A DNA stretch of 64,000 nt from Alphaproteobacteria bacterium (GCA_965205265.1 CBDBGH010000003.1:1152001-1216000), one strand, 5' to 3'. Numbered from the stretch's first letter, positions 39,069-49,510 are shown. Notes: generated by a model from the letters alone, not told the origin. Program-made: numbers and translations.

Positions 39069-39112
39069 CGGCATGGTGCCGCGCAGACCGTGAATTGTGC
39101 CGGGAATCCGGG

Positions 39113-41200
39113 TCAGGGGTCGTTGGACAGATCAGGCGGCGCTGCGCGCGGCGGTGCGGGTACGGAAACGCGCCCGGTGACTTTCGGGCGAAAGGCGGGA
39201 GAGGTCCTGCCGGAGGAGAAGCCGGGGATGGGCCGCACGGGCGCGCCTTCATGCGCCGCCGCCATGAAATCGCGCCAGATGCGCGCCGGCAGGCCGCCGC
39301 CGGTCACCTCGTCCATCGGCGCGCCGTCGTCATTGCCGACCCACACGCCGGCGACCAGGTTGCCGGTGAAGCCGATGAAGAAGGCGTCGCGGAAGGACTG
39401 GCTGGTGCCCGTCTTGCCGGCGGCCGGCCGGCCGGCGAGCCGGGCGGCCCTGCCGGTGCCCTCGTTCACCGCGGCGGACAGCAGGTCGTTCATGGACGCC
39501 ACCACGCCGGGCGCCACGGCCTCGCCCGCGCCGGTGCCGGCCCGCTCGAACACGCCCTCGATCTCCCGAACGCCGTAGGGGATCACGCCTGCGCCGCCAT
39601 TGGCGAAGGTGGCGTAGGCGCCGGTCAGCTCGATCAGCCGCACCGCGCTCGAGCCGAGCGCAATGGTGAGATCGGGCGCGAGGTCCGATGTAATGCCGAG
39701 GCGTCGCGCCGCTTCGGCGACGCGGGCGCGTCCGGCGCGGTCCGCGAGGCGGACGGCGGCGGCATTCAGCGATTGCGCGAAGGCCTCCCGCATGGCGATC
39801 GAGCCCCGGAACCGCCCGTCGAAGTTCCGGGGGGCCCATCCACCCACATTCACGCGGGCGTCGGTCACGGTGCTGTCCGGACTCAGGCCCCGCTCCAGCG
39901 CCGCCATATAGACGAACAGCTTGAAAGCCGAGCCCGGCTGGCGGAGCGCCTGCGTCGCGCGGTTGAACTGGCTGGCGCCGTAGTCCCTGCCGCCGACCAT
40001 GGCCCGCACCGCGCCATCCGGCGACATGGCGACAAGGGCGGCCTGGGACGGGTTCGTCCTGCCCGCCAGCGCTGCGGCGACCGTTTCCGCCGCGAGGCGT
40101 TGCAGGCCGGGATCGAAGGTCGTGGCGATACGGAGGTCCCGGTCCACCAGCCCCAGGCGCCGGTTCACCTGCGCCAGCACCCAGTCGGCGAAATAGCCCC
40201 GCCCGTCCGGTTCCGTTGCGGTCCGCAATGTCGAGGCGGCCGTCCGCGCGGCTTGCTCGGGCGAAATGAAGCCGACGCTTGCCATCGCCTTCAGCACAAG
40301 GCGCCCCCGCTCCGCCGCGCCGCCCGGATTGGCGGCAGGCGACAAGCGGCTCGGCGCTTTCAGCAGGCCGGCAAGCACGGCGGCCTCCCAGAGATCGACT
40401 TCGGCCGCCGGCTTGGAGAAGAAGCGCCGTGCGGCGGCGTCGATGCCGTAGGCTCCGGAACCGAAATACACCCGGTTCAGATACAGCGAGATTATGTGGT
40501 CCTTGTCGTAGCGCCACTCCAGCCAGAAGGCGAGCAGGGCCTCGCGGATTTTCCGCTCGATAGACCGCTCGGGCGTCAGGAAGATGTTTTTGGCAAGCTG
40601 CTGAGTGATCGTGCTGCCGCCCTGGCGCACTCTTCCCTCGACGATGTTGACCCAGAGAGCCCGGACAAGGCCGATCAGATCGATACCGCTATGGTCGTAA
40701 AAGCGCCGGTCCTCGATTGCGATAACCGCGCGCGGCACGTAGTCGGGCAGTTCGGCCGCATTTACCGGGTCGCCGTAAAGATCGCCCTTGGCGAGGAGGG
40801 GATTACCGGCCGCATCGTTGAGAAAAATACCGGGGCGCCGACCGCTTTCCGCGGCCTGTTCGACATCGGGCAGGGTGTAGGAAAAGTAGGCGAGCGCCGC
40901 GATCAGCGCGACCAGGCCCCAGACAAAGGCGACCGCCGTCCCGGAGACGAGGCGCCGCAGAAGGGACCGGCGCGCGCCGCCCGTCTTTCTTGTCCGGCGT
41001 CCGGTCCGGCTCGACGATTTCCGTTTGGGCGCCACATTCCCGGGCCGTTTGTTCCCGAGCGTTCTAGCCGGCGAATGTGGCGATTCCGGGGCCGGCCCGG
41101 ATTTGCCGCCCGACCCTTTGCGCAGGCTCGGACCGCCCCGGCGCCGCTGCCCCGTTCCTTTCCTGCCCGTCCTGTCGCCCTGGCGCGCCATGGGCGTCAT
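39113..41200 (-). CDS. class A penicillin-binding protein (PBP1A family)
   Basis: EDRRFYDH, GGSTITQQ, RKIRE, SAFK, SLN, KTG motifs. Confidence 0.95.
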   Translation of the reverse strand: MTPMARQGDRTGRKGTGQRRRGGPSLRKGSGGKSGPAPESPHSPARTLGNKRPGNVAPKRKSSSRTGRRTRKTGGARRSLLRRLVSGTAVAFVWGLVALIAALAYFSYTLPDVEQAAESGRRPGIFLNDAAGNPLLAKGDLYGDPVNAAELPDYVPRAVIAIEDRRFYDHSGIDLIGLVRALWVNIVEGRVRQGGSTITQQLAKNIFLTPERSIERKIREALLAFWLEWRYDKDHIISLYLNRVYFGSGAYGIDAAARRFFSKPAAEVDLWEAAVLAGLLKAPSRLSPAANPGGAAERGRLVLKAMASVGFISPEQAARTAASTLRTATEPDGRGYFADWVLAQVNRRLGLVDRDLRIATTFDPGLQRLAAETVAAALAGRTNPSQAALVAMSPDGAVRAMVGGRDYGASQFNRATQALRQPGSAFKLFVYMAALERGLSPDSTVTDARVNVGGWAPRNFDGRFRGSIAMREAFAQSLNAAAVRLADRAGRARVAEAARRLGITSDLAPDLTIALGSSAVRLIELTGAYATFANGGAGVIPYGVREIEGVFERAGTGAGEAVAPGVVASMNDLLSAAVNEGTGRAARLAGRPAAGKTGTSQSFRDAFFIGFTGNLVAGVWVGNDDGAPMDEVTGGGLPARIWRDFMAAAHEGAPVRPIPGFSSGRTSPAFRPKVTGRVSVPAPPRAAPPDLSNDP

Positions 41201-41224
41201 ATAGGCCCAAGGTCCGGGCTATTT

Positions 41225-42436
41225 CTAGGCCACGGCGCGGTGGGCCTGGCTTCGCGGCAGGATGAGCAGGCTGCCGAGAAGCTGCATGCCCTTGTCGTCG
41301 TCTCCGGCCGCCCGCTCGCGCAGCGCGAGCAGCGCCCTGCCGCCGGCCGTCTCGCCCCAGAACCAGTCCGAGAGGTCCCGCGAGGCTGCCGCTCCGGGCT
41401 GCGCCGTGGCCGCCTCGGTGTAGAAGGCCATCAGGTCGTCGCAGGCGAGCTTCAGCGCGCGGGAGAGCTTGCGTTCCGGTCCCGGATCGTCCGGCTCCCC
41501 GCCATCGGCGTACCGGCAGATCATCCGGACCGCTTCCTCGATTTCGTAGCCGCTGGCGCCGACCGTGGTCCGCCCGCGCCGTTCCTTCGCAAGATCCCAC
41601 CACGGCCGAAGGCGGGCTATTTCATCCGCGACGAGCCGCTCGCGGTTGCCGTCCGGGGCGGTCTCGGGCCGGGGAAGGGACACGGGACAGGCCCAGCCCT
41701 CGTAATCCGCAGGCTCCGGCGCGGAATCGGGAAATTCCTCCAGCACCGGGCCGGCGGGCCGGTCCAGCAGCGCAAGGGCGGCGCGCAGCACCCGGAGCTG
41801 GAAATCCGGGTTGTCCGGCGCGCCCAGCGGCCGGCCGAGCTCGAAGGGCACGGACAGCGTGCGGGGATTGGCGATGGCCTCGGCATGTTCGTGAACCAGG
41901 GCGATGGCCACCGTGGCGATACCCTCGCGCTCAAGATAGTGGGCGAGCGCGCACACGGCGCGCGTGCAGTTCGGTCAGACGGGCACCAGCAGCGCCGTAT
42001 CCACGCCTTCGGCCCGCATGGCGGCCGCGACATCCTCCGCGAAGGGCTGCATCGGCGCGGGGTCGCTCGCGCCCATGAAGGAATAGTGGTGGTCCGCGAC
42101 GCCGCCGATTTCGCCCGCGGCCGCCATCTCCTTGAGGCGGTCGAGCGGGTAAACGATGTTGAGGTCCTGCTGGAAGCCGGTGCGGTCGTAGTTGACCGAG
42201 ATATGGCTCATCACGATGTCGCCCGCGCCCGCATCGGCCGGCAGCACCCGGTAATCGACGGCCCCGGGGCCGAACGGGCGGTCTCCGCGCCTGCCGAGGC
42301 CGGCGGAGGAAACCACGGCGATCCGGCGTTCGGAAAGGGGGGGCCCGGAGACGAAGGAGCCGCCCTCCATTTCGGGCAGCGGCAGGCGGGCGAGATGCCG
42401 GGCAACGCCCTCCGGCATGTCGGCGTAGCGGGTCAT
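41225..42436 (-). CDS. PrdB/GrdB-like selenoprotein, 403 aa, Sec154 (UGA at 41975-41977)
   Basis: Two in-frame ORFs separated by one TGA read VPV-U-PNC-TRAV; DLNIVYPLDRLKEM, HYSFMG, VPFELGRPLG motifs; AAGGAG SD before ATG 42436. Confidence 0.85.
41944..41974 (-). promoter_or_regulatory. putative bacterial SECIS hairpin
   Basis: UGA, 11 nt, then GCGCGC-CGUGU-GCGCGC; G followed by U at the start of the loop. Confidence 0.65.
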
Positions 42437-42504
42437 GGATGCTCCTTGCGGAATCGGCGACGATGCGCGAAACAACGGGACGACGCTACATAGAGTGAGG
42501 CAAG

Positions 42505-43485
42505 ATGCAGGTCAAAGCCATCCGGATCGACAGGCCGGGACCGCCGTCGGCGATGGAATTGCGCACGGTGACGGTCGGCGAGCCGGGCCCCGGCGAAGCG
42601 CTGATCCGCCATACCGCTGTCGGGTTGAACTATATCGACACCTACCACCGCTCGGGGCTCTACGAACTGCCGCTGCCGAGCGGGATCGGCAGCGAGGGGG
42701 CGGGCGTCGTCGAGGCGGTCGGCGAAGGCGTCGGGCATATAGCGCCGGGCGACAGGGTGGCCTATTCGGGCGGCGCGCCCGGTTCCTATTCGGAAGCGCG
42801 CGTGATGCCCGCCGACCGGCTGGTGAAGCTGCCGGACGACATCGACGACAGGCAGGCCGCAGCCATGATGCTCAAGGGCATGACCGTCGAATATCTGCTG
42901 AACCGCACCTTCAAGGTGTCGCCGGGCCAGACCATCCTGTTCCACGCGGCGGCCGGCGGCGTCGGGCTGATCGCCGGCCAGTGGGCCAAGGCGCTCGGCG
43001 CAACCGTCATCGGCACGGCCGGCGGCCCCGAGAAATGCGAACTGGCCAAGGGTTACGGCTACGACCACATGATCGACTACAAGCAGGGCGGCATCGCCCG
43101 GCAGGTGCGCGAGCTTACGGGCGGGGCCGGCGTTCCGGTGGTCTATGACAGCGTCGGCAAGGCGACCTGGGACGAATCGCTGGACTGCCTCGCGCCGCGC
43201 GGGGTGATGGTGTCTTTCGGCAATGCCTCCGGTCCGGCCGCGCCGTTTGCGCCCGGCATTCTCGCGGCCAAGGGCTCGCTCTACCTGACCCGGCCGTCCC
43301 TGGTGCACTACACGTTGACGCAGCAGGACGTGCAGGCATCGGCCGATGCGCTGTTCGCCATGGTGAGTTCGGGCAAGGTCAGGATCGAGGTGAACCAGAC
43401 CTATGCGCTGGCCGATGCCGCGAAGGCGCATGAGGATCTTGAGGGACGCCGGACCACCGGTTCGACCGTCCTGCTGGTGGAGTAG
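42505..43485 (+). CDS. qor: NADPH:quinone oxidoreductase (zeta-crystallin family)
   Basis: GLNYIDTYHRSGLY, HAAAGGVG, SFGNASG, RRTTGS motifs. Confidence 0.92.
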   Translation: MQVKAIRIDRPGPPSAMELRTVTVGEPGPGEALIRHTAVGLNYIDTYHRSGLYELPLPSGIGSEGAGVVEAVGEGVGHIAPGDRVAYSGGAPGSYSEARVMPADRLVKLPDDIDDRQAAAMMLKGMTVEYLLNRTFKVSPGQTILFHAAAGGVGLIAGQWAKALGATVIGTAGGPEKCELAKGYGYDHMIDYKQGGIARQVRELTGGAGVPVVYDSVGKATWDESLDCLAPRGVMVSFGNASGPAAPFAPGILAAKGSLYLTRPSLVHYTLTQQDVQASADALFAMVSSGKVRIEVNQTYALADAAKAHEDLEGRRTTGSTVLLVE

Positions 43486-43492
43486 CCGCGCG

Positions 43493-44281
43493 ATGTCCGC
43501 AGACACGGTCCTCTACGAGGTGCGCGACGGCCTTGCGCACGTAACGCTCAACCGTCCCGACGCCGCCAACGCCTTCGACCTCGATTTCGTCCGGGCGTTC
43601 CACCGCGTCATGATCGACTGCGACAAGAACAGGGCCGTGCGGGCGGTGCTGCTGACGGGCGCCGGCAAGATGTTCAGCGCCGGCGGCGACCTCAAATTCT
43701 TCCTGCAGGCCGGCGACAGGGTGGCCTCCGTGCTGGCGGAGATGACGACCAGCCTCCATACCGCGATTGCGGTGATGAACCGGATGGACGCTCCGGTCGT
43801 CATCGCGGTCAATGGCATGGCTGCCGGGGGCGGCATGTCGCTTGCGTTGACGGGCGATGTCGTCTTTGCGGGCGAAAGCGCGCGGTTCACCATGGCCTAT
43901 ACCGCCGGCGGCCTCTCGCCGGACGGCAGTTCGACCTGGTTCCTGCCCCGGCTGGTCGGGTTTCGCCGCGCCAAGGAACTGGCGCTGACGAACAGGATGC
44001 TGAGCGCCGCCGAAGCGATGGAGGCCGGCATCGTCGATCGCGTGGTTCCGGACAGCAAGCTGATGGCGGAAGCGGAAAAGCAGGCGCGCCTCTTCGCGGA
44101 CGGCCCGACCGGAGCCTATGGCGCGGTCAAGCGGCTGATGATCGAGAGCTTCCAGAACGGGCTCGAAACGCAGATGGAGCTCGAGTCCCGCGCCATCGCC
44201 GCCCGTGCCGCCAGCGCCGACGGGCGCGAGGGCGTGGGCGCTTTCGCCGAGAAGCGCAAACCGACCTTTACCGGGGAATAA
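43493..44281 (+). CDS. enoyl-CoA hydratase/isomerase family protein
   Basis: LNRPDAANA, FSAGGDL, AAGGG, GLSPDG motifs. Confidence 0.93.
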   Translation: MSADTVLYEVRDGLAHVTLNRPDAANAFDLDFVRAFHRVMIDCDKNRAVRAVLLTGAGKMFSAGGDLKFFLQAGDRVASVLAEMTTSLHTAIAVMNRMDAPVVIAVNGMAAGGGMSLALTGDVVFAGESARFTMAYTAGGLSPDGSSTWFLPRLVGFRRAKELALTNRMLSAAEAMEAGIVDRVVPDSKLMAEAEKQARLFADGPTGAYGAVKRLMIESFQNGLETQMELESRAIAARAASADGREGVGAFAEKRKPTFTGE

Positions 44282-44287
44282 CCGCCG

Positions 44288-45166
44288 ATGAATGCCGCCG
44301 AACTGCCGAAGTCCTTCGTTGAGGTGAAGGGCAGGCGCATGGCCTATACGGAGATGGGCGAGGGCGACCCCGTCGTCTTCCTTCACGGCAACCCGACATC
44401 CTCCTATCTCTGGCGCAACATCATGCCGCATGTGGCAGGGCAGGCCCGCTGCCTGGCGCCCGACCTCATCGGCATGGGCGACAGCGACAAGCTCGACGAC
44501 CCGGGCCCCGGCAGCTACCGCTTCGTCGAGCACCGGGACTATCTGGACGGTTTCCTCGACGCCGTCGGCCTCGGCGGCAATGCCGTGTTCGTCGTCCATG
44601 ACTGGGGCTCGGCGCTCGGCTTCGACTGGGGCAACCGACACCGGGACCGCATGCGGGGCTTCTGCTACATGGAGGCGCTCGTCAGGCCCGTTACTTGGGA
44701 AGAGTGGCCGGAAGCGGCGAAGGCCGTATTTCAGGGTTTCCGCTCGCCGGCGGGCGAAGGGATGGTGCTGGAAAAGAACGTGTTCGTGGAGCGCGTGCTC
44801 CCCGGCTCGATCCTGCGCAAGATGTCCGAAGAGGAAATGGCGGTTTACCGCCGGCCCTTCGCGGCTCCGGGAGAGGACCGCCGCCCGACCCTCACATGGC
44901 CGCGCGAGATCCCGATCTCCGGCGAGCCGGCGGATGTCGTCGGGATCGTGCGCGCCTATTCCGAGTGGCTGGCCGCCTCGGATGTCGCCAAGCTGTTCAT
45001 CGACGCCGAGCCGGGCGCCATCCTGACCGGCCCGCAACGGGAGTTCTGCCTGGGCTGGCCCAACCAGACCGTGGCGAAGGTCAAGGGCAGCCACTTCATC
45101 CAGGAAGACTCCCCCGACGAGATCGGCAAGGCCCTCTCCGACTGGCTGCGCAGCCTGCCGCGGTAG
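44288..45166 (+). CDS. haloalkane dehalogenase (LinB-like)
   Basis: [42 protein letters not shown] motifs. Confidence 0.93.
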
Positions 45167-45176
45167 TTCGCCGCCT

Positions 45177-46739
45177 TCAAGCGGGCCGGCCCGATGACGG
45201 CTGCCGGGCCAGCCGCTCGGCGAGCTCCAGCTTGCGGACCTTGCCGGTGGCTGTGACCGGCAGGGCGGCGCGCTCGACGATCTCGATGCGCTGCGGCGTC
45301 TTGTAGGCGGCGAGCTCCGCCCGGCAGGCGCGTTTCAGCGTGTCGGGATCGGGAGACGCGCCGGGTTCTGCGACCACGACCGCCGCGGGCACCTCGCCCT
45401 TCACCGCATCCGGCAGGCCGACGACATAGGCTTCCGCAACGCCGGGCCGGTCCTGCAGGAATGTCTCGATTTCGCGCGGCGCGATATTGATGCCGCCCGA
45501 TTTCAGCATCTCCTTCAGGCGCCCCTGGAACAGCAGCCGGCCGCCATCGTCCCAGGCCGCAAGGTCCCCGGTCTTCATCCAGCCGTCCGCGGTGAAGATT
45601 TCGGAATCGCGCTCCGCATCGTTGTAGTAGCCCGGCATGTTCCGCCCGCGCAGCCAGATTTCGCCCTGCGCGCCGTCGCGGCCGGTTTCGGGATCGACGA
45701 GACGGATGTCCTGCCCGGGCAATGGCCGCCCGCATGTGATGTGCCGTATGTGCAGGGGATCGTCATAATCGCAAACCGCCGAATTCCCATAGGCTTCCGT
45801 CAGGCCGTAAACCTGAAGGATTCGTCCGACCCCGAGCCGTTCGATCAGCGCCATGTCGCCGGGCGTGCCGATGGAGAGGCCGGTCCGCAGCGACGAAAGG
45901 TCCCGCCCCGGCCGGTCCGGATGCTCCCACATCGCATGGGCCATGTTGGGCATGCCGTAGAAGACGGAGCAGCGCTCCCGCTCGATGAGCGCCATCGCCT
46001 CGCCCGGCTCGAAAGCGTGCTGGAGGACGATTGCCGCCCCGTGGGTCAACGCAGCCCCGAGGGCGTTGGCGGCGGCGAAGCTCCAGAAGAGATTGATGGC
46101 GAGCCAGACCCGGTCCTCCGGCCCGAGGCGCATCCGCTCGCCGATGGCGCGCATGTTCTCGATAATGCCGCGATGGGTGAGCTGCGCGCCCTTCGGCATG
46201 GCGGTGGTGCCGGAGGTGAAGAGGATTTGCGCCACATCGTCCGGTTCCGGGCCGGGAAAGGCGCCGGGCTCGCGGCACAGCGCGGACCAGGGCAGGGCGC
46301 CCGGCGGCGTGTCGCCCAGGATGACAACGGTGCCGACATTGTCGAACGCGCCGGCCTCGCGGAGCAGGGCGGGATAGTCCTGCCGGAGATAGCGGTCGGC
46401 GGCGACCAGAAGCCCGATGTCCGACTTGGCGAAGACATGGCGAAGCTCATGGGTGCGGAACCAGGTGTTGATCGCGACAACGCGCGCGCCGAGCGACAGC
46501 GCCGCGAACATGACCGCAAGCCACTCCGGGCAATTGCCCATCAGCAGGCCGACATTGTCGCCCCGCCGGATGCCGTGCGCATGGAGCCCGGCGGCAAGCC
46601 GCGCGGCCTCATCGCGGAAAGCGCCATAGGTCCAGCGTTCGCCGCGATAGACCAGGAATTCGCGGTCGGGCGCGCTATCGGCGAGGGCGTCCAGCAGGCC
46701 GGGCAGCGTGCGAGCGGTCCGGACCGCTTCGGACATCAT
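45177..46739 (-). CDS. AMP-binding acyl-CoA synthetase
   Basis: FTSGTTAMPKG, YGLTE, GWMKTGD, GRLKEM, GKVRK motifs. Confidence 0.93.
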   Translation of the reverse strand: MMSEAVRTARTLPGLLDALADSAPDREFLVYRGERWTYGAFRDEAARLAAGLHAHGIRRGDNVGLLMGNCPEWLAVMFAALSLGARVVAINTWFRTHELRHVFAKSDIGLLVAADRYLRQDYPALLREAGAFDNVGTVVILGDTPPGALPWSALCREPGAFPGPEPDDVAQILFTSGTTAMPKGAQLTHRGIIENMRAIGERMRLGPEDRVWLAINLFWSFAAANALGAALTHGAAIVLQHAFEPGEAMALIERERCSVFYGMPNMAHAMWEHPDRPGRDLSSLRTGLSIGTPGDMALIERLGVGRILQVYGLTEAYGNSAVCDYDDPLHIRHITCGRPLPGQDIRLVDPETGRDGAQGEIWLRGRNMPGYYNDAERDSEIFTADGWMKTGDLAAWDDGGRLLFQGRLKEMLKSGGINIAPREIETFLQDRPGVAEAYVVGLPDAVKGEVPAAVVVAEPGASPDPDTLKRACRAELAAYKTPQRIEIVERAALPVTATGKVRKLELAERLARQPSSGRPA

Positions 46740-47101
46740 CGTTCGCGCGCGGCCTCGACAAGCGGCACGGCGCGCCCGTTATAGACGTCCGGCTTGCGCA
46801 CGCGGACGCGGCACCAGGCGACTTTCGGGTCCTGCAGGCAAAGCTCCAGAAGCTCGTCCACCAGCGTTTCCAGCAGGTCGGTATGCGGACGGTCGGGCCA
46901 CTCGGAGGTCACATGGCGATAGACGCGGTCGTAGTCGATGCAGTCGTCGATGCTCCGCGCCGTCTCCCATTCGGGGCGGGTCATTTCGACATCGACGAGC
47001 AGGCGCTGGCGCCTGCCGGGATGGCGTTCCCAGTCCGCGATGCCCACCCTGGCCTCGACGGCAATGCCTTCGAGGGCCACACGCTGCCAGGTCCGCGTCA
47101 T
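46736..47101 (-). CDS. folB: dihydroneopterin aldolase family protein
   Basis: VGIADWE, QRLLVDV, IDY, LLETL, VRKP motifs. Confidence 0.85.
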   Translation of the reverse strand: MTRTWQRVALEGIAVEARVGIADWERHPGRRQRLLVDVEMTRPEWETARSIDDCIDYDRVYRHVTSEWPDRPHTDLLETLVDELLELCLQDPKVAWCRVRVRKPDVYNGRAVPLVEAARER

Positions 47102-47832
47102 TCCTCGATCATCGCCGTCTCGACGTCCTCATAGTCCTGAAAGCGGAATCCGGCGTCAACATAGAGCGTTTCCCCGGTCACGCTTTTCGTCTCGACCAGG
47201 TAGCGCACCGCCCGAAACAGGTCGTCCAGCGCGATTTCGCGCTCGAGCAGGGTGGAGCGGACGACGGCCCGGTATTCGTCGGCGCTCTGACCGCCGCTCG
47301 GCAGCACCACGCCCGGCGCGACGGCGTTCACGCGCACGGTCGGCGCCAGCGCCTGCGCCAGCATCGTGGTGGCGTTCTGGAGCGCGGTCTTGGCGAGCGT
47401 GTAGGACAGGAAGGACGCGCTCGGCCGCCAGATCTTGAAATCGAGGAAATTGACGGCCACGGCCGGTCGGCCGCGGGCGGCGACGGCCCGGATGAGATTG
47501 ACCGGGGCCGCCAGATTGACCGCGATATTGCGCGCCCAGGTTCCGGCCTCCAGCGTCTCCATGTCGTCATACTCGAAGGTGGACGCGCAGTTGATGAGCA
47601 CATCCACCGGCCCCAGCGCGGCCTCGCAACCGGCGATCAGGGACTCTGCGGCATTCCACTCGGAAAGGTCGGCCGGAAGCAGGGCGGCTTGCCCGATCCG
47701 CGCCGCAAGCGTCTCCGCTTCCGGCCGCGAGCCGTTGTAGTGGATGCCGACGGAGCAGCCCGCCCGCCCGAAGCCGAGCGCCAGATGGCGACCGATTCGC
47801 CGCGCCGCGCCCGTCACCAGCACCACCGTCAT
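47098..47832 (-). CDS. SDR, pteridine reductase (FolM/PTR1-like)
   Basis: TGAARRIG, IHYNGS, NFLD, YTLAK motifs; adjacent to folB. Confidence 0.8.
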   Translation of the reverse strand: MTVVLVTGAARRIGRHLALGFGRAGCSVGIHYNGSRPEAETLAARIGQAALLPADLSEWNAAESLIAGCEAALGPVDVLINCASTFEYDDMETLEAGTWARNIAVNLAAPVNLIRAVAARGRPAVAVNFLDFKIWRPSASFLSYTLAKTALQNATTMLAQALAPTVRVNAVAPGVVLPSGGQSADEYRAVVRSTLLEREIALDDLFRAVRYLVETKSVTGETLYVDAGFRFQDYEDVETAMIEE

Positions 47833-48680
47833 GACGCCAGCCAGGCTTCCAGGTTCTCGACTTCGCCGGCGTCCCGGGCCGCCCGGAAGGCCTCGTTGGC
47901 GCTGGCGTTGGCGGTGAATTCCGCACGGGCGGCCGCGGCGATTTCGGGCGTGAGGTCGAGGCCGCCCGCATCGATGGCGGCGACGATTGCGGCATAGCCG
48001 CGCGCCGCCCGGTCGGCCGTGTCGGGCGACTGGGTGATCGAGCCGTCGCGCTTGACATAGTCGTAGCCGGTTCGCGCGAGGCCGCGGAATTCCGGGCAGC
48101 GGCTCAGCACTTCGAGGTTGAATACGACATCGCTGCAGAAGTCGAAGGCGCGCCAGCCCCCGCCCGCGAGCTCGCGGCGGAGGAGCGCGTTCATCGGCAG
48201 GCGGGGGGCGAGGATCGCCTCGGCCGTCAGCCGGAAGTCCGCCGGAGTTGCCGGGAACGCCGTCTTCGTCAGGCAACCTCCGATCCAGAGCGCCGTATTG
48301 TCCACCGCCGCGCCGTAGCGCTCCGCATAGGGCAGCATGAAGGCGAGCCGCTCCGGGCGCATGGCGTCGTCGGCATCGAGATTGGCGACGAAACGCCCCC
48401 GCGCCGCGGCCAGCGCGGCATTGCGGGCGGGCCCGTCGCCGCTGCCCGTTCGTCCCGTGGAAACCTGCCGGAGGCGCGGGTCGGCGCAGCCCAGCATGGC
48501 CGCGTAGTCCTCGCCGTCGTCGGAAGCGAGCACCACCTCGATATCGTCGAACGTCTGGGCGAGCGCGCTTCGGACCGCCTTGCCGATCGTCCCGGCGGCC
48601 TCGAAACACGGGACCAGAATGCTGACGGTCGGTGCTAGACTGTGCGCCAGGGAGCCGTCCTCCGTCGGGGCGCGGCACAT
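47829..48680 (-). CDS. glycosyltransferase family 2
   Basis: VSILVPCF, SALAQT, ARNAAL, LDADD motifs; start uncertain (ATG 48680 or CTG 48653). Confidence 0.85.
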   Translation of the reverse strand: MCRAPTEDGSLAHSLAPTVSILVPCFEAAGTIGKAVRSALAQTFDDIEVVLASDDGEDYAAMLGCADPRLRQVSTGRTGSGDGPARNAALAAARGRFVANLDADDAMRPERLAFMLPYAERYGAAVDNTALWIGGCLTKTAFPATPADFRLTAEAILAPRLPMNALLRRELAGGGWRAFDFCSDVVFNLEVLSRCPEFRGLARTGYDYVKRDGSITQSPDTADRAARGYAAIVAAIDAGGLDLTPEIAAAARAEFTANASANEAFRAARDAGEVENLEAWLAS

Positions 48681-48703
48681 TAGCAGTATCGGAGAAAGCC
48701 CGC

Positions 48704-49510
48704 ATGAACGGCCTGCCGTCCTACGATGTCTTCGCAATCCGCTACGGCGAGCAGAAGGAGCGCCCGGAGGGCTCGACCTTCATGGGCGGCGACCCGGCGA
48801 AGACGATCCCCGGCCTCGACTTCTTCACCTATGTTATCGCCGGGGCAGGAAGGACCTGGATCGTCGATACCGGCTTCAAGGCCGACATTTCCGGCGAGGG
48901 CGGGCGCATGTTCCTGCACGACCCGGCGGCCGTGCTGGGCCGGCTCGGCGTCGATGCGAAGACGGCGCCCGACGTCCTGCTGACCCACGCGCATTTCGAC
49001 CATGTCGGCAATCTCGCCGACTATCCTGCGGCGTCTTTCCGCATGCACGCCGAGGAAATGGCGTCGATCACCGGCCCTGACATGACGCATCCGGCCTTCC
49101 GCCACGCCTACCATCTGCGCGACACCCAGGCGCTGGTGCAGCTCGTCTATGAAGACCGGCTGCGTTTCGACACCGACCCGGTCGTCGAAATCGCCCCCGG
49201 CCTCGAATCGCACCTGATCGGCGGCCATGCGCGCGGCCAGACGGTGCTGCGCGTCCACAGCAGGCGGGGCTGGATCCTGCTCGCCTCCGATGCCGTCCAC
49301 CTGTTCGAGGAAGTGACGGACGAGCGTCCGTTCGCCATCTTCTACGACCTCGCGAAGATGGTGGAAGGGTATCGGCGCTGCCTGGCGCTTGCGGGCTCGC
49401 TCGACCGGCTGGTTCCCGGCCACGACCAGCTGGTGACGGCGCGTTATCCGGCCCCGAGCGCCGGGCTCGAAGGCATCGTATTCGACCTTGGCGCCGAGCC
49501 CTCGGCCTGA
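48704..49510 (+). CDS. metallo-beta-lactamase fold hydrolase, AHL-lactonase family
   Basis: VDTG, THAHFDHVG, GGH, SDA, PGHD motifs. Confidence 0.88.
   Translation: MNGLPSYDVFAIRYGEQKERPEGSTFMGGDPAKTIPGLDFFTYVIAGAGRTWIVDTGFKADISGEGGRMFLHDPAAVLGRLGVDAKTAPDVLLTHAHFDHVGNLADYPAASFRMHAEEMASITGPDMTHPAFRHAYHLRDTQALVQLVYEDRLRFDTDPVVEIAPGLESHLIGGHARGQTVLRVHSRRGWILLASDAVHLFEEVTDERPFAIFYDLAKMVEGYRRCLALAGSLDRLVPGHDQLVTARYPAPSAGLEGIVFDLGAEPSA

Follow-up and report, generated by a model that had tools for sequence, protein, structure and literature searches.

The closest described relatives of the gene analysed here are the selenocysteine-containing subunits of two clostridial reductase systems. PrdB of Clostridium sticklandii and Clostridioides difficile shares with the predicted protein an alpha/beta domain in which selenocysteine (Sec) occupies the corresponding place in a U-x-x-C motif (U151 of the C. 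difficile protein according to PMC11229817, U154 of the present sequence). The SECIS element of PrdB lies directly past the UGA codon, as does its candidate counterpart here. GrdB, GrdF and GrdH (PF07355, TIGR01917) belong to the same superfamily and have UxxC with Sec as well; the protein in question matches the GRDB family above the gathering score.

For 20 years PrdB-type selenoproteins have been recognised as some of the most abundant selenoproteins in the surface ocean. In the Sargasso Sea data, 'Proline reductase PrdB' was listed by Zhang, Fomenko and Gladyshev in 2005 (PMC1088965) as a UxxC family with 42 Sec genes. In the GOS data, Zhang and Gladyshev in 2008 (PMC2398784) reported 235 Sec and 110 Cys homologues of PrdB, assigned to pfam07355 and ranking with the most abundant families; searched for as a term, PrdA is not mentioned in the paper. 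The PrdB of these marine surveys is probably the same broad group as the protein described below, the Cys forms of ~415 aa included. Where reviews of 2016, 2022 and 2026 (including PMC13188914) treat the family, they describe it only via the clostridial proline reductase. In the open-access full-text literature no paper on orphan proteobacterial PrdB-like members was found.

The reading frame and its recoded product

The window is a stretch of 64,000 nucleotides from an Alphaproteobacteria bacterium (GCA_965205265.1, CBDBGH010000003.1:1152001-1216000), and all positions are counted from its first letter unless another contig is named. On the minus strand, translation table 11 yields two ORFs in the same frame, 41975..42475 (TTG start, 166 aa) and 41225..41956 (GTG start, 243 aa). 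The codons around the TGA that separates them are GTG CCC GTC TGA CCG AAC TGC ACG CGC GCC GTG TGC GCG CTC, translated as V P V * P N C T R A V C A L. The initial annotation had reported two ORFs of one frame split by a TGA, and its coordinates and codons proved exact. When TGA is translated as U, a protein of 403 aa is obtained with U154 and C157 in the motif U-P-N-C, that is, with the UxxC arrangement of PrdB; this reproduces the Sec154/Cys157 product proposed there. The GTG that opens the second ORF encodes Val161, within the loop of the hairpin described below. Direct reading finds no purine-rich Shine-Dalgarno sequence ahead of it, again as initially described. As to the initial description of the downstream ORF as a continuation of the same fold, the PrdB-model homology and the orthologue alignments both run across the UGA. 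The features of the locus are collected in Table 1.

Table 1. Features of the putative selenoprotein locus and its neighbours, in window coordinates
Feature	Position	Strand	Remarks and basis
Putative selenoprotein CDS, 403 aa	41225..42436	minus	ATG 42436; stop TAG 41227-41225; end-to-end orthologue alignment
Shine-Dalgarno AAGGAG	42442..42447	minus	5 nt upstream of ATG; direct sequence reading
UGA codon 154, predicted to be read as Sec	41975..41977	minus	TGA/Cys comparison of homologues
Cys157 codon, putative resolving cysteine of UxxC	41966..41968	minus	Invariant in A1 (13 sequences) and A2 (44 sequences)
Predicted SECIS-type hairpin, 6-bp stem GCGCGC/GCGCGC, loop CGUGU	41947..41963	minus	11 nt past UGA; comparative evidence
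PrdB/GrdB-like alpha/beta domain, residues 33-224	41765..42340	minus	TIGR04483 alignment; carries UxxC
Predicted C-terminal all-helical domain, residues 243-403	41228..41710	minus	Conserved motifs; AF2 model
Divergent Zn-ADH-type oxidoreductase	42505-43485	plus	Neighbour of the selenoprotein gene
Class-A PBP	39113-41200	minus	Just downstream of the selenoprotein gene

The TGA site is spanned with 0 differences by contigs from two studies; one, X3, extends over the whole stretch and is possibly the source of the window itself, and the other, X5, spans 41552-42528. Among the RNA runs X17 and X18, the sole contig across the UGA is one of X17, a metatranscriptome library (41106-42014); with 61 differences it represents a ~93%-alike relative, and it may derive from DNA. 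Three of the four RNA runs contained no more than 9% of the sampled words, and X17 contained 21%.

The UGA codon, the hairpin and the Sec machinery

The gene family was searched for in 60 related genomes together with the window's own, and a match was found in 42 of these 61. All 36 genomes of the same family gave a match, and each best match had exactly one TGA, at identities from 93% to ~52%; in end-to-end alignments the identity of the orthologues ranges from 93% down to 42%. Codon 154 is TGA in all 30 family orthologues extracted, within the context P-V/I-U-P-x-C-T-R, a count which, like the other conservation counts given here, overstates independence because many of the genomes are closely related (a single genus supplies 17 of the first 30). 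A class-wide survey was made on 301 genomes sampled evenly from the class, with E <= 1e-50 as the threshold for a full-length orthologue. It yielded an orthologue in 23 genomes, and the 25 matches comprise 21 with TGA and 4 without a stop. The TGA position is TGC (Cys) in L052, L072, L073 and L074. The TGA is kept in 49 of the 49 TGA-form orthologue sequences extracted (42 of them distinct, from many genera), and the Sec column is Cys in all 12 aligned database homologues. Both halves of the protein are conserved in the alignment of the query with these 12 homologues (A1, 13 sequences) and in a larger one of 44 sequences (A2), the C-terminal half with C250, RRGRTT at 286-291 and P347. At the UGA column, which the initial annotation had proposed to compare among homologues, TGA or Cys is found and nothing else. 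In these alignments the column carries the classical signature of a Sec/Cys pair.

A bacterial SECIS element is a stem-loop that lies a short distance past the UGA and has a G near the beginning of its apical loop. At this locus a spacer of 11 nt is followed by a 6-bp stem with the loop CGUGN. The stem strands GCGCGC (41963-41958) and GCGCGC (41952-41947) enclose the loop CGUGU (41957-41953), which is exactly the perfect hairpin, 11 nt past the UGA, that had been described from the sequence at the outset. Its stability is unexceptional for a GC-rich sequence (z = 0.49; 131 of 200 shuffles fold equally well), and its significance comes from comparative evidence and not from energy. In the codon alignment of 30 orthologues there are 183 conserved degenerate columns, whose codon entropy averages 1.07 bits. 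Only seven of the 183 are codon-invariant, among them TGA, R159 CGC, A160 GCC, V161 GTG and A163 GCG; the last four codons form the hairpin core. When six-column windows are ranked from the lowest entropy, the best four of 178 all fall on codons 156-165.

Pair counts were made on the distinct TGA-form sequences. All 42 keep the three apical pairs. For pair 16-30 the counts are 38 C-G and 2 U-A (L064 and L065, via two non-synonymous substitutions), and for the basal pair 33 G-C, 1 A-U and 1 U-A. Cells in which both sides have changed number 4, against 0.3 in shuffles, a value reached by 0 of 500 shuffles; with these four cells the apparent covariation within orthologues is thin. Being a GC repeat, the stem also pairs when slid by 2, in 73% and 69% of cells. 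In the four Cys forms the hairpin core is missing, TRA[T/A] replaces TRAV, and the 45 nt past the codon have folding energies of -5.9 to -10.6 kcal/mol versus -8.2 to -25.9 kcal/mol in the Sec forms.

Two paralogues in the same genome, scoring 89.1 and 96.2 bits against TIGR04483 PrdB, have the same layout of UGA, 11 nt, 6-bp stem and loop CGUGA, with stems (CCAGAC/GUCUGG and UCAGAC/GUCUGA) that differ entirely from that of the target. A scan of the 5.7-Mb genome for this hairpin geometry gave 33 matches; five are in open frames, and three of the five are the three putative selenoprotein genes. An Rfam scan of 41700-42200 at E <= 10 returned no SECIS family, with only chance matches to mir-3188 and v-snoRNA-1. 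The comparative evidence strongly suggests that the hairpin is under RNA-level selection and behaves as a SECIS. The initial description of it as SECIS-like gains support from the synonymous-site invariance, the pair counts, the loss in Cys forms, the paralogues and the genome scan. The window's genome is predicted to encode three PrdB/GrdB-like selenoproteins, the target included.

The genes of the Sec pathway, named in the initial annotation as a point to check, are all present in the genome with scores above curated cut-offs. The adjoining selA (531.5 bits) and selB (435.2 bits) lie at C3:1327757-1330950, ~133 kb from the gene; selD scores 277.1 bits, and the tRNA-Sec (selC) scores 72.6 bits with the anticodon UCA according to ARAGORN. 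TGA ends 2,924 of the 4,647 open frames of at least 400 codons and is the commonest ordinary stop; it also ends the neighbouring PBP gene. Since TGA is thus a normal stop, there is no genome-wide reassignment.

In the class sample selA was found in 39 of the 301 genomes. It is present in 17 of the 19 genomes with the TGA form of the gene versus 0 of the 4 with the Cys form; the two TGA-form genomes without a selA match are 69% (G297) and 92% (G135) complete. The distance between selA and the gene is <=10 kb on the same contig in 8 of the 17 TGA-form genomes with selA. According to Pfam scans of flanking ORFs, a selA/selB/selD-type gene is directly adjacent at 6 of 21 Sec-form loci (7 of 22 with L064 counted), and at the Cys-form loci such a gene is adjacent in 0 of 4.

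Apart from the Sec genes, no partner conserved across families was seen at the flanking loci examined. Of 53 loci, 23 retain the Zn-ADH neighbour, all of them in two genera; the PBP neighbour is retained in 16 of the 53 and is confined to a single genus. At the Cys-form loci a TauD-family dioxygenase follows the gene in three of four cases and a GST precedes it in two of four. Genes of acyl-CoA metabolism are found near the gene in the window (ECH, AMP-binding, SDR) and at L046, L049 and L060 (acyl-CoA dehydrogenases, AMP-binding). As a functional clue this theme was rejected, being too common in such genomes.

Family membership and predicted structure

Translated with TGA as U, the protein matches Pfam PF07355 GRDB with 30.9 bits versus a gathering cut-off of 22, residues 81-151 being aligned to profile positions 274-345; this is the search that the initial annotation had suggested, and it came out above the cut-off. 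The genome-wide search gave an agreeing score of 32.4 bits. The best NCBIfam match is TIGR04483 PrdB, which aligns residues 33-224 across codon 154 to profile positions 26-218 of 238; its score of 99.3 bits misses the equivalog cut-off of 300 bits. The broader TIGR01918 (glycine/betaine/sarcosine/D-proline family reductase selenoprotein B) is missed with 48.4 versus 65.45 bits, and the GrdB equivalog TIGR01917 with 40.3 versus 602.2 bits; the full-length ~430-aa GrdB architecture is likewise absent. The NCBIfam cut-offs of GrdF and GrdH are missed as well, the scores for GrdB, GrdF and GrdH being 40-60 bits versus cut-offs of 602-800. In the 98.98%-complete genome neither PF09338 (the PrdA/GrdE pyruvoyl subunit) nor PF04723 (GrdA) had a match, in searches run without a positive control genome, and the neighbourhoods examined held no prd/grd genes, PrdA included. 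The name 'PrdB/GrdB-like' given initially therefore stands at the level of the superfamily; below that level it does not, as the protein falls short of the PrdB, GrdB and TIGR01918 cut-offs and neither PrdA/GrdE nor GrdA turned up as a partner. By these profile comparisons the protein would be neither a true PrdB nor a true GrdB.

The closest public entries are 243-aa 'hypothetical protein' fragments with 67-91% identity at 60% coverage. Full-length public homologues (405-427 aa, 40-47% identity) are Cys forms, and at JGI and NCBI they are named 'glycine/sarcosine/betaine reductase selenoprotein B family protein' or 'D-proline reductase PrdB'. Judged from the names of the nearest public matches, the hosts are probably aerobic Alphaproteobacteria. 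The selenoprotein was initially called hidden. This is true of the annotation, in which the closest entries are the 243-aa hypothetical proteins, and it is not true of the literature, in which PrdB-type UxxC selenoproteins have been listed since 2005. Because the wider family is already known as one of selenoproteins, the gene is to be regarded as a new, mis-annotated member. With such truncated entries a whole predicted selenoprotein clade, three members per genome in the present case, is invisible to standard pipelines, and the selenoproteome sizes of such bacteria are consequently underestimated.

The AlphaFold2 model of the whole protein, built on the 44-sequence alignment, has a pLDDT of 88.4 and a pTM of 0.89. 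It consists of an alpha/beta domain (~32-240) and an all-helical domain (~265-403). The strand 147-151 leads into the helix 155-170, and therefore Sec154 is predicted to cap the N-terminus of this helix, with the UxxC site at its N-cap. The N-terminus of a helix is the usual setting of redox CxxC motifs. No relative was found when solved structures were searched by sequence with the protein and with the profile of A2; the sole match was 3ds8_A at E = 0.33. Foldseek gave no match to the whole model at E <= 0.001, and VIA returned generic Rossmann, periplasmic-binding and SDR folds only, all on residues 32-240 with Z <= 8.4. The best of these matches to the alpha/beta domain (Z 8.4, rmsd 3.4 over 138 residues) is within the noise range stated for the tool.

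The C-terminal domain harbors a nearly invariant Cys250 (in CPV) and the RRGRTT motif (286-291). Folded alone, it is predicted with a pLDDT of 88.2 and a pTM of 0.87. It has no Pfam or NCBIfam match; the best VIA hit has Z 4.7, with 0 of 48,161 chains at Z >= 5, and the best Foldseek hit has E = 2. In the ESM Atlas, the C-terminal part of a natural Cys-form homologue matched only unnamed clusters with scores <0.9. No known fold was recognised for the modelled helical domain of ~160 aa, and a new fold is not claimed.

Proposed function and comparison with known systems

If the UGA terminated translation, the locus would consist of two genes, or of one gene interrupted by a nonsense mutation or a sequencing error, and the hairpin would be a coincidental GC-rich sequence. 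Gene callers do split the locus in this way, public entries are fragments of 243 aa, and the hairpin energy is unremarkable. Such a reading is nevertheless highly improbable in view of the TGA found in all 49 TGA-form sequences of many genera, between flanks that are both conserved as protein down to 42% identity, and of the Cys that takes its place in the remaining homologues. Moreover, no Shine-Dalgarno sequence precedes the second ORF, whose GTG encodes a Val inside the longer frame; contigs of two studies agree exactly over the stretch, and the TGA form tracks selA (17/19 vs 0/4). Conservation of both halves would be expected equally from read-through that bypasses the Sec pathway, either by near-cognate insertion of Trp or Cys or by general reassignment of the stop. 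This explanation can hardly be reconciled with TGA as the commonest ordinary stop of a genome that has a complete Sec pathway, nor with the alternative residue in homologues, which is always Cys, and the conserved hairpin, which has a SECIS-like position and a G-containing loop and is gone in Cys forms.

A different question is whether the protein might be the true B subunit of a D-proline or glycine/sarcosine/betaine reductase, the pyruvoyl subunit and the usual partners being encoded elsewhere. PrdB is indeed the top NCBIfam match, the UxxC lies at the same place, Pfam GRDB is matched, and the Cys-form homologues carry PrdB or selenoprotein B names at JGI and NCBI. The distance of the scores from the PrdB, GrdB and broad subfamily cut-offs speaks against it, and so do the additional 160-aa domain, absent from PrdB, the lack of PF09338 and PF04723 matches in the nearly complete genome (searched with no positive control genome) and that of prd/grd genes in the neighbourhoods examined. 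It is very unlikely that the protein is such a subunit.

The gene is thus very probably a genuine selenoprotein gene. The initial view of one selenoprotein which gene callers split finds support in the homology across the UGA, the TGA/Cys column, the Sec genes and the hairpin. We propose that the ribosome reads UGA154 as Sec because the hairpin 11 nt downstream (6-bp GC stem, loop C-G-U-G-N) recruits SelB with Sec-tRNA(Sec). The product would be a single cytoplasmic protein of 403 residues in which a PrdB/GrdB-type alpha/beta domain is joined to a helical domain specific to the family, and Sec154 and Cys157 would form a U-x-x-C redox pair at the N-terminus of a helix. By analogy with the chemistry of PrdB and GrdB, as outlined in PMC11229817 and the review PMC13188914, the selenolate may attack an electrophilic centre in its substrate, either a small molecule or a protein. 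Cys157 would then resolve the adduct to a Se-S bond (selenenyl-sulfide), which an external reductant, either a cellular thiol or an NAD(P)H-linked system, would re-reduce.

This enzyme would work without a pyruvoyl subunit (PrdA/GrdE) and without GrdA. As neither PrdA/GrdE nor GrdA was found, it is proposed to be an orphan reductase-B-like enzyme and not a proline or glycine reductase; our best guess, by analogy, is a stand-alone Sec/Cys reductase. The lack of a pyruvoyl partner among the matches also suggests a role of the C-terminal domain, with its Cys250 and RRGRTT, in substrate binding or electron transfer, although such participation is speculation. A wider hypothesis, tentative and on balance rather unlikely, is that the ~400-aa proteins make up a class of Sec-dependent reductases that is self-sufficient and independent of a pyruvoyl subunit, the helical domain binding the substrate in place of PrdA/GrdE, and that together with the shorter paralogues they are the main reason why many aerobic Alphaproteobacteria keep and co-inherit selA/selB/selD. 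They would then be 'anchor selenoproteins', a role assigned in Proteobacteria to formate dehydrogenase.

The putative family-specific SECIS (11-nt spacer, 6-bp stem, CGUGN loop) may be used to find further members. Taken together, the observations, including the TauD/GST context of the Cys forms, make the function of orphan PrdB-like proteins experimentally approachable.

Compared with PrdB, the target lacks the context of PrdA, PrdH and PrdC, and no PF09338 match was found in its genome. It has 403 aa versus ~240 aa because of the extra helical domain, and it comes from probably aerobic Alphaproteobacteria, whereas PrdB belongs to Stickland fermenters. In contrast to GrdB, it matches only the last ~70 of the 347 Pfam positions (274-345), and the N-terminal ~270 residues of GrdB are missing; no GrdA was found in its genome. 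The 'PrdB' family of the marine surveys, abundant in oxic surface-ocean communities, is described there as UxxC selenoproteins of pfam07355, which the target as predicted here would be as well. What the present analysis adds to that family is the absence of detectable PrdA/GrdA partners, the conserved extra domain, and the co-occurrence and frequent linkage with selA/B/D. For this family the surveys, in the parts that list it, give counts only, whereas the target contributes domain architecture, paralogy, the shape of the candidate SECIS and the linkage to selA/B/D.

Paralogous selenoprotein genes and the segment around the UGA

The genome to which the window belongs (G000) carries two further GRDB/PrdB-like selenoprotein genes on the same contig (see Table). 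In both of them the TGA is found in the context N/V-U-P-V-C-H-Q-T-V and is followed by a SECIS hairpin with the same geometry as in the target gene (11-nt spacer and 6-bp stem), the paralogue loop being CGUGA. The TIGR04483 scores of the two products, 89 and 96 bits, lie below the cut-off of 300. Nearly every related genome in the list from the search of this genome and its relatives also has similar paralogues, again with one TGA apiece.

Several short contigs, in the metagenome run X5 and at corresponding loose ends of the metatranscriptome-library run X17, match the window only over ~32–36 nt spanning the UGA and the hairpin (window 41946-41983) and then diverge. Matches limited to such a length fit the reading of this segment as the most conserved DNA shared across relatives and paralogues. 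In the orthologue at locus L064 (G069:C4:226389-227573) the match span contains one TAG besides the TGA, and the hairpin shows a compensatory U-A pair plus a G.G mismatch.

Genes around the target and its orthologues

Antisense to the genes for both the PBP and the selenoprotein runs an open frame of 1132 aa (window 39095-42493, +), most probably a shadow ORF of the sort that high-GC DNA commonly yields. Lipid/acyl-CoA-type genes lie in a row beside the target locus (window 43403-48705). A gene of the TauD/TfdA-family dioxygenase lies downstream of the Cys-form gene (TGC in place of the TGA) on the same strand in loci L052, L073 and L074, with a GST gene upstream in the latter two, and a flavin-monooxygenase-like gene is present instead in the fourth Cys-form locus, L072. 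A GST/glutaredoxin-like neighbour is present in the Sec-form locus L068 and a glutaredoxin-DinB_2 ORF in L075.

Table. Coordinates of neighbouring, paralogous, selD and molybdopterin oxidoreductase genes
Feature	Coordinates	Strand	Remark
Enoyl-CoA hydratase	window 43403-44281	+	
Alpha/beta hydrolase	window 44288-45166	+	
AMP-binding ligase	window 45177-46739	-	
SDR domain	window 47098-48705	-	in 535-aa ORF
GRDB/PrdB-like selenoprotein gene, 310 aa	G000:C3:4133624-4134553 = L053:2625-3554	+	single in-frame TGA; outside window
GRDB/PrdB-like selenoprotein gene, 294 aa	G000:C3:4420887-4421768 = L054:2888-3769	-	single in-frame TGA; outside window
selD match	G000:C3:4511043-4511930		within 754-aa open frame
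SelD	L064:3400-4185	-	apparent N-terminal extension
SelD	L039:2-1411	+	apparent N-terminal extension
SelD	L068:2-1456	+	apparent N-terminal extension
Molybdopterin oxidoreductase match (PF00384, 216.7 bits)	G000:C3:2681754-2683925	+	one in-frame TGA; within 1255-aa open frame

SelD and a possible further selenoprotein gene

The molybdopterin oxidoreductase match may represent the alpha subunit of a Sec-containing formate dehydrogenase. A long N-terminal extension appears to be fused to SelD in the lineage of G000, L064, L039 and L068. Since Pfam places Pyr_redox_2 and then AIRS in one reading frame of the L064 selD, the SelD of this lineage is suggested to be a pyridine-nucleotide-disulfide-oxidoreductase-SelD fusion.
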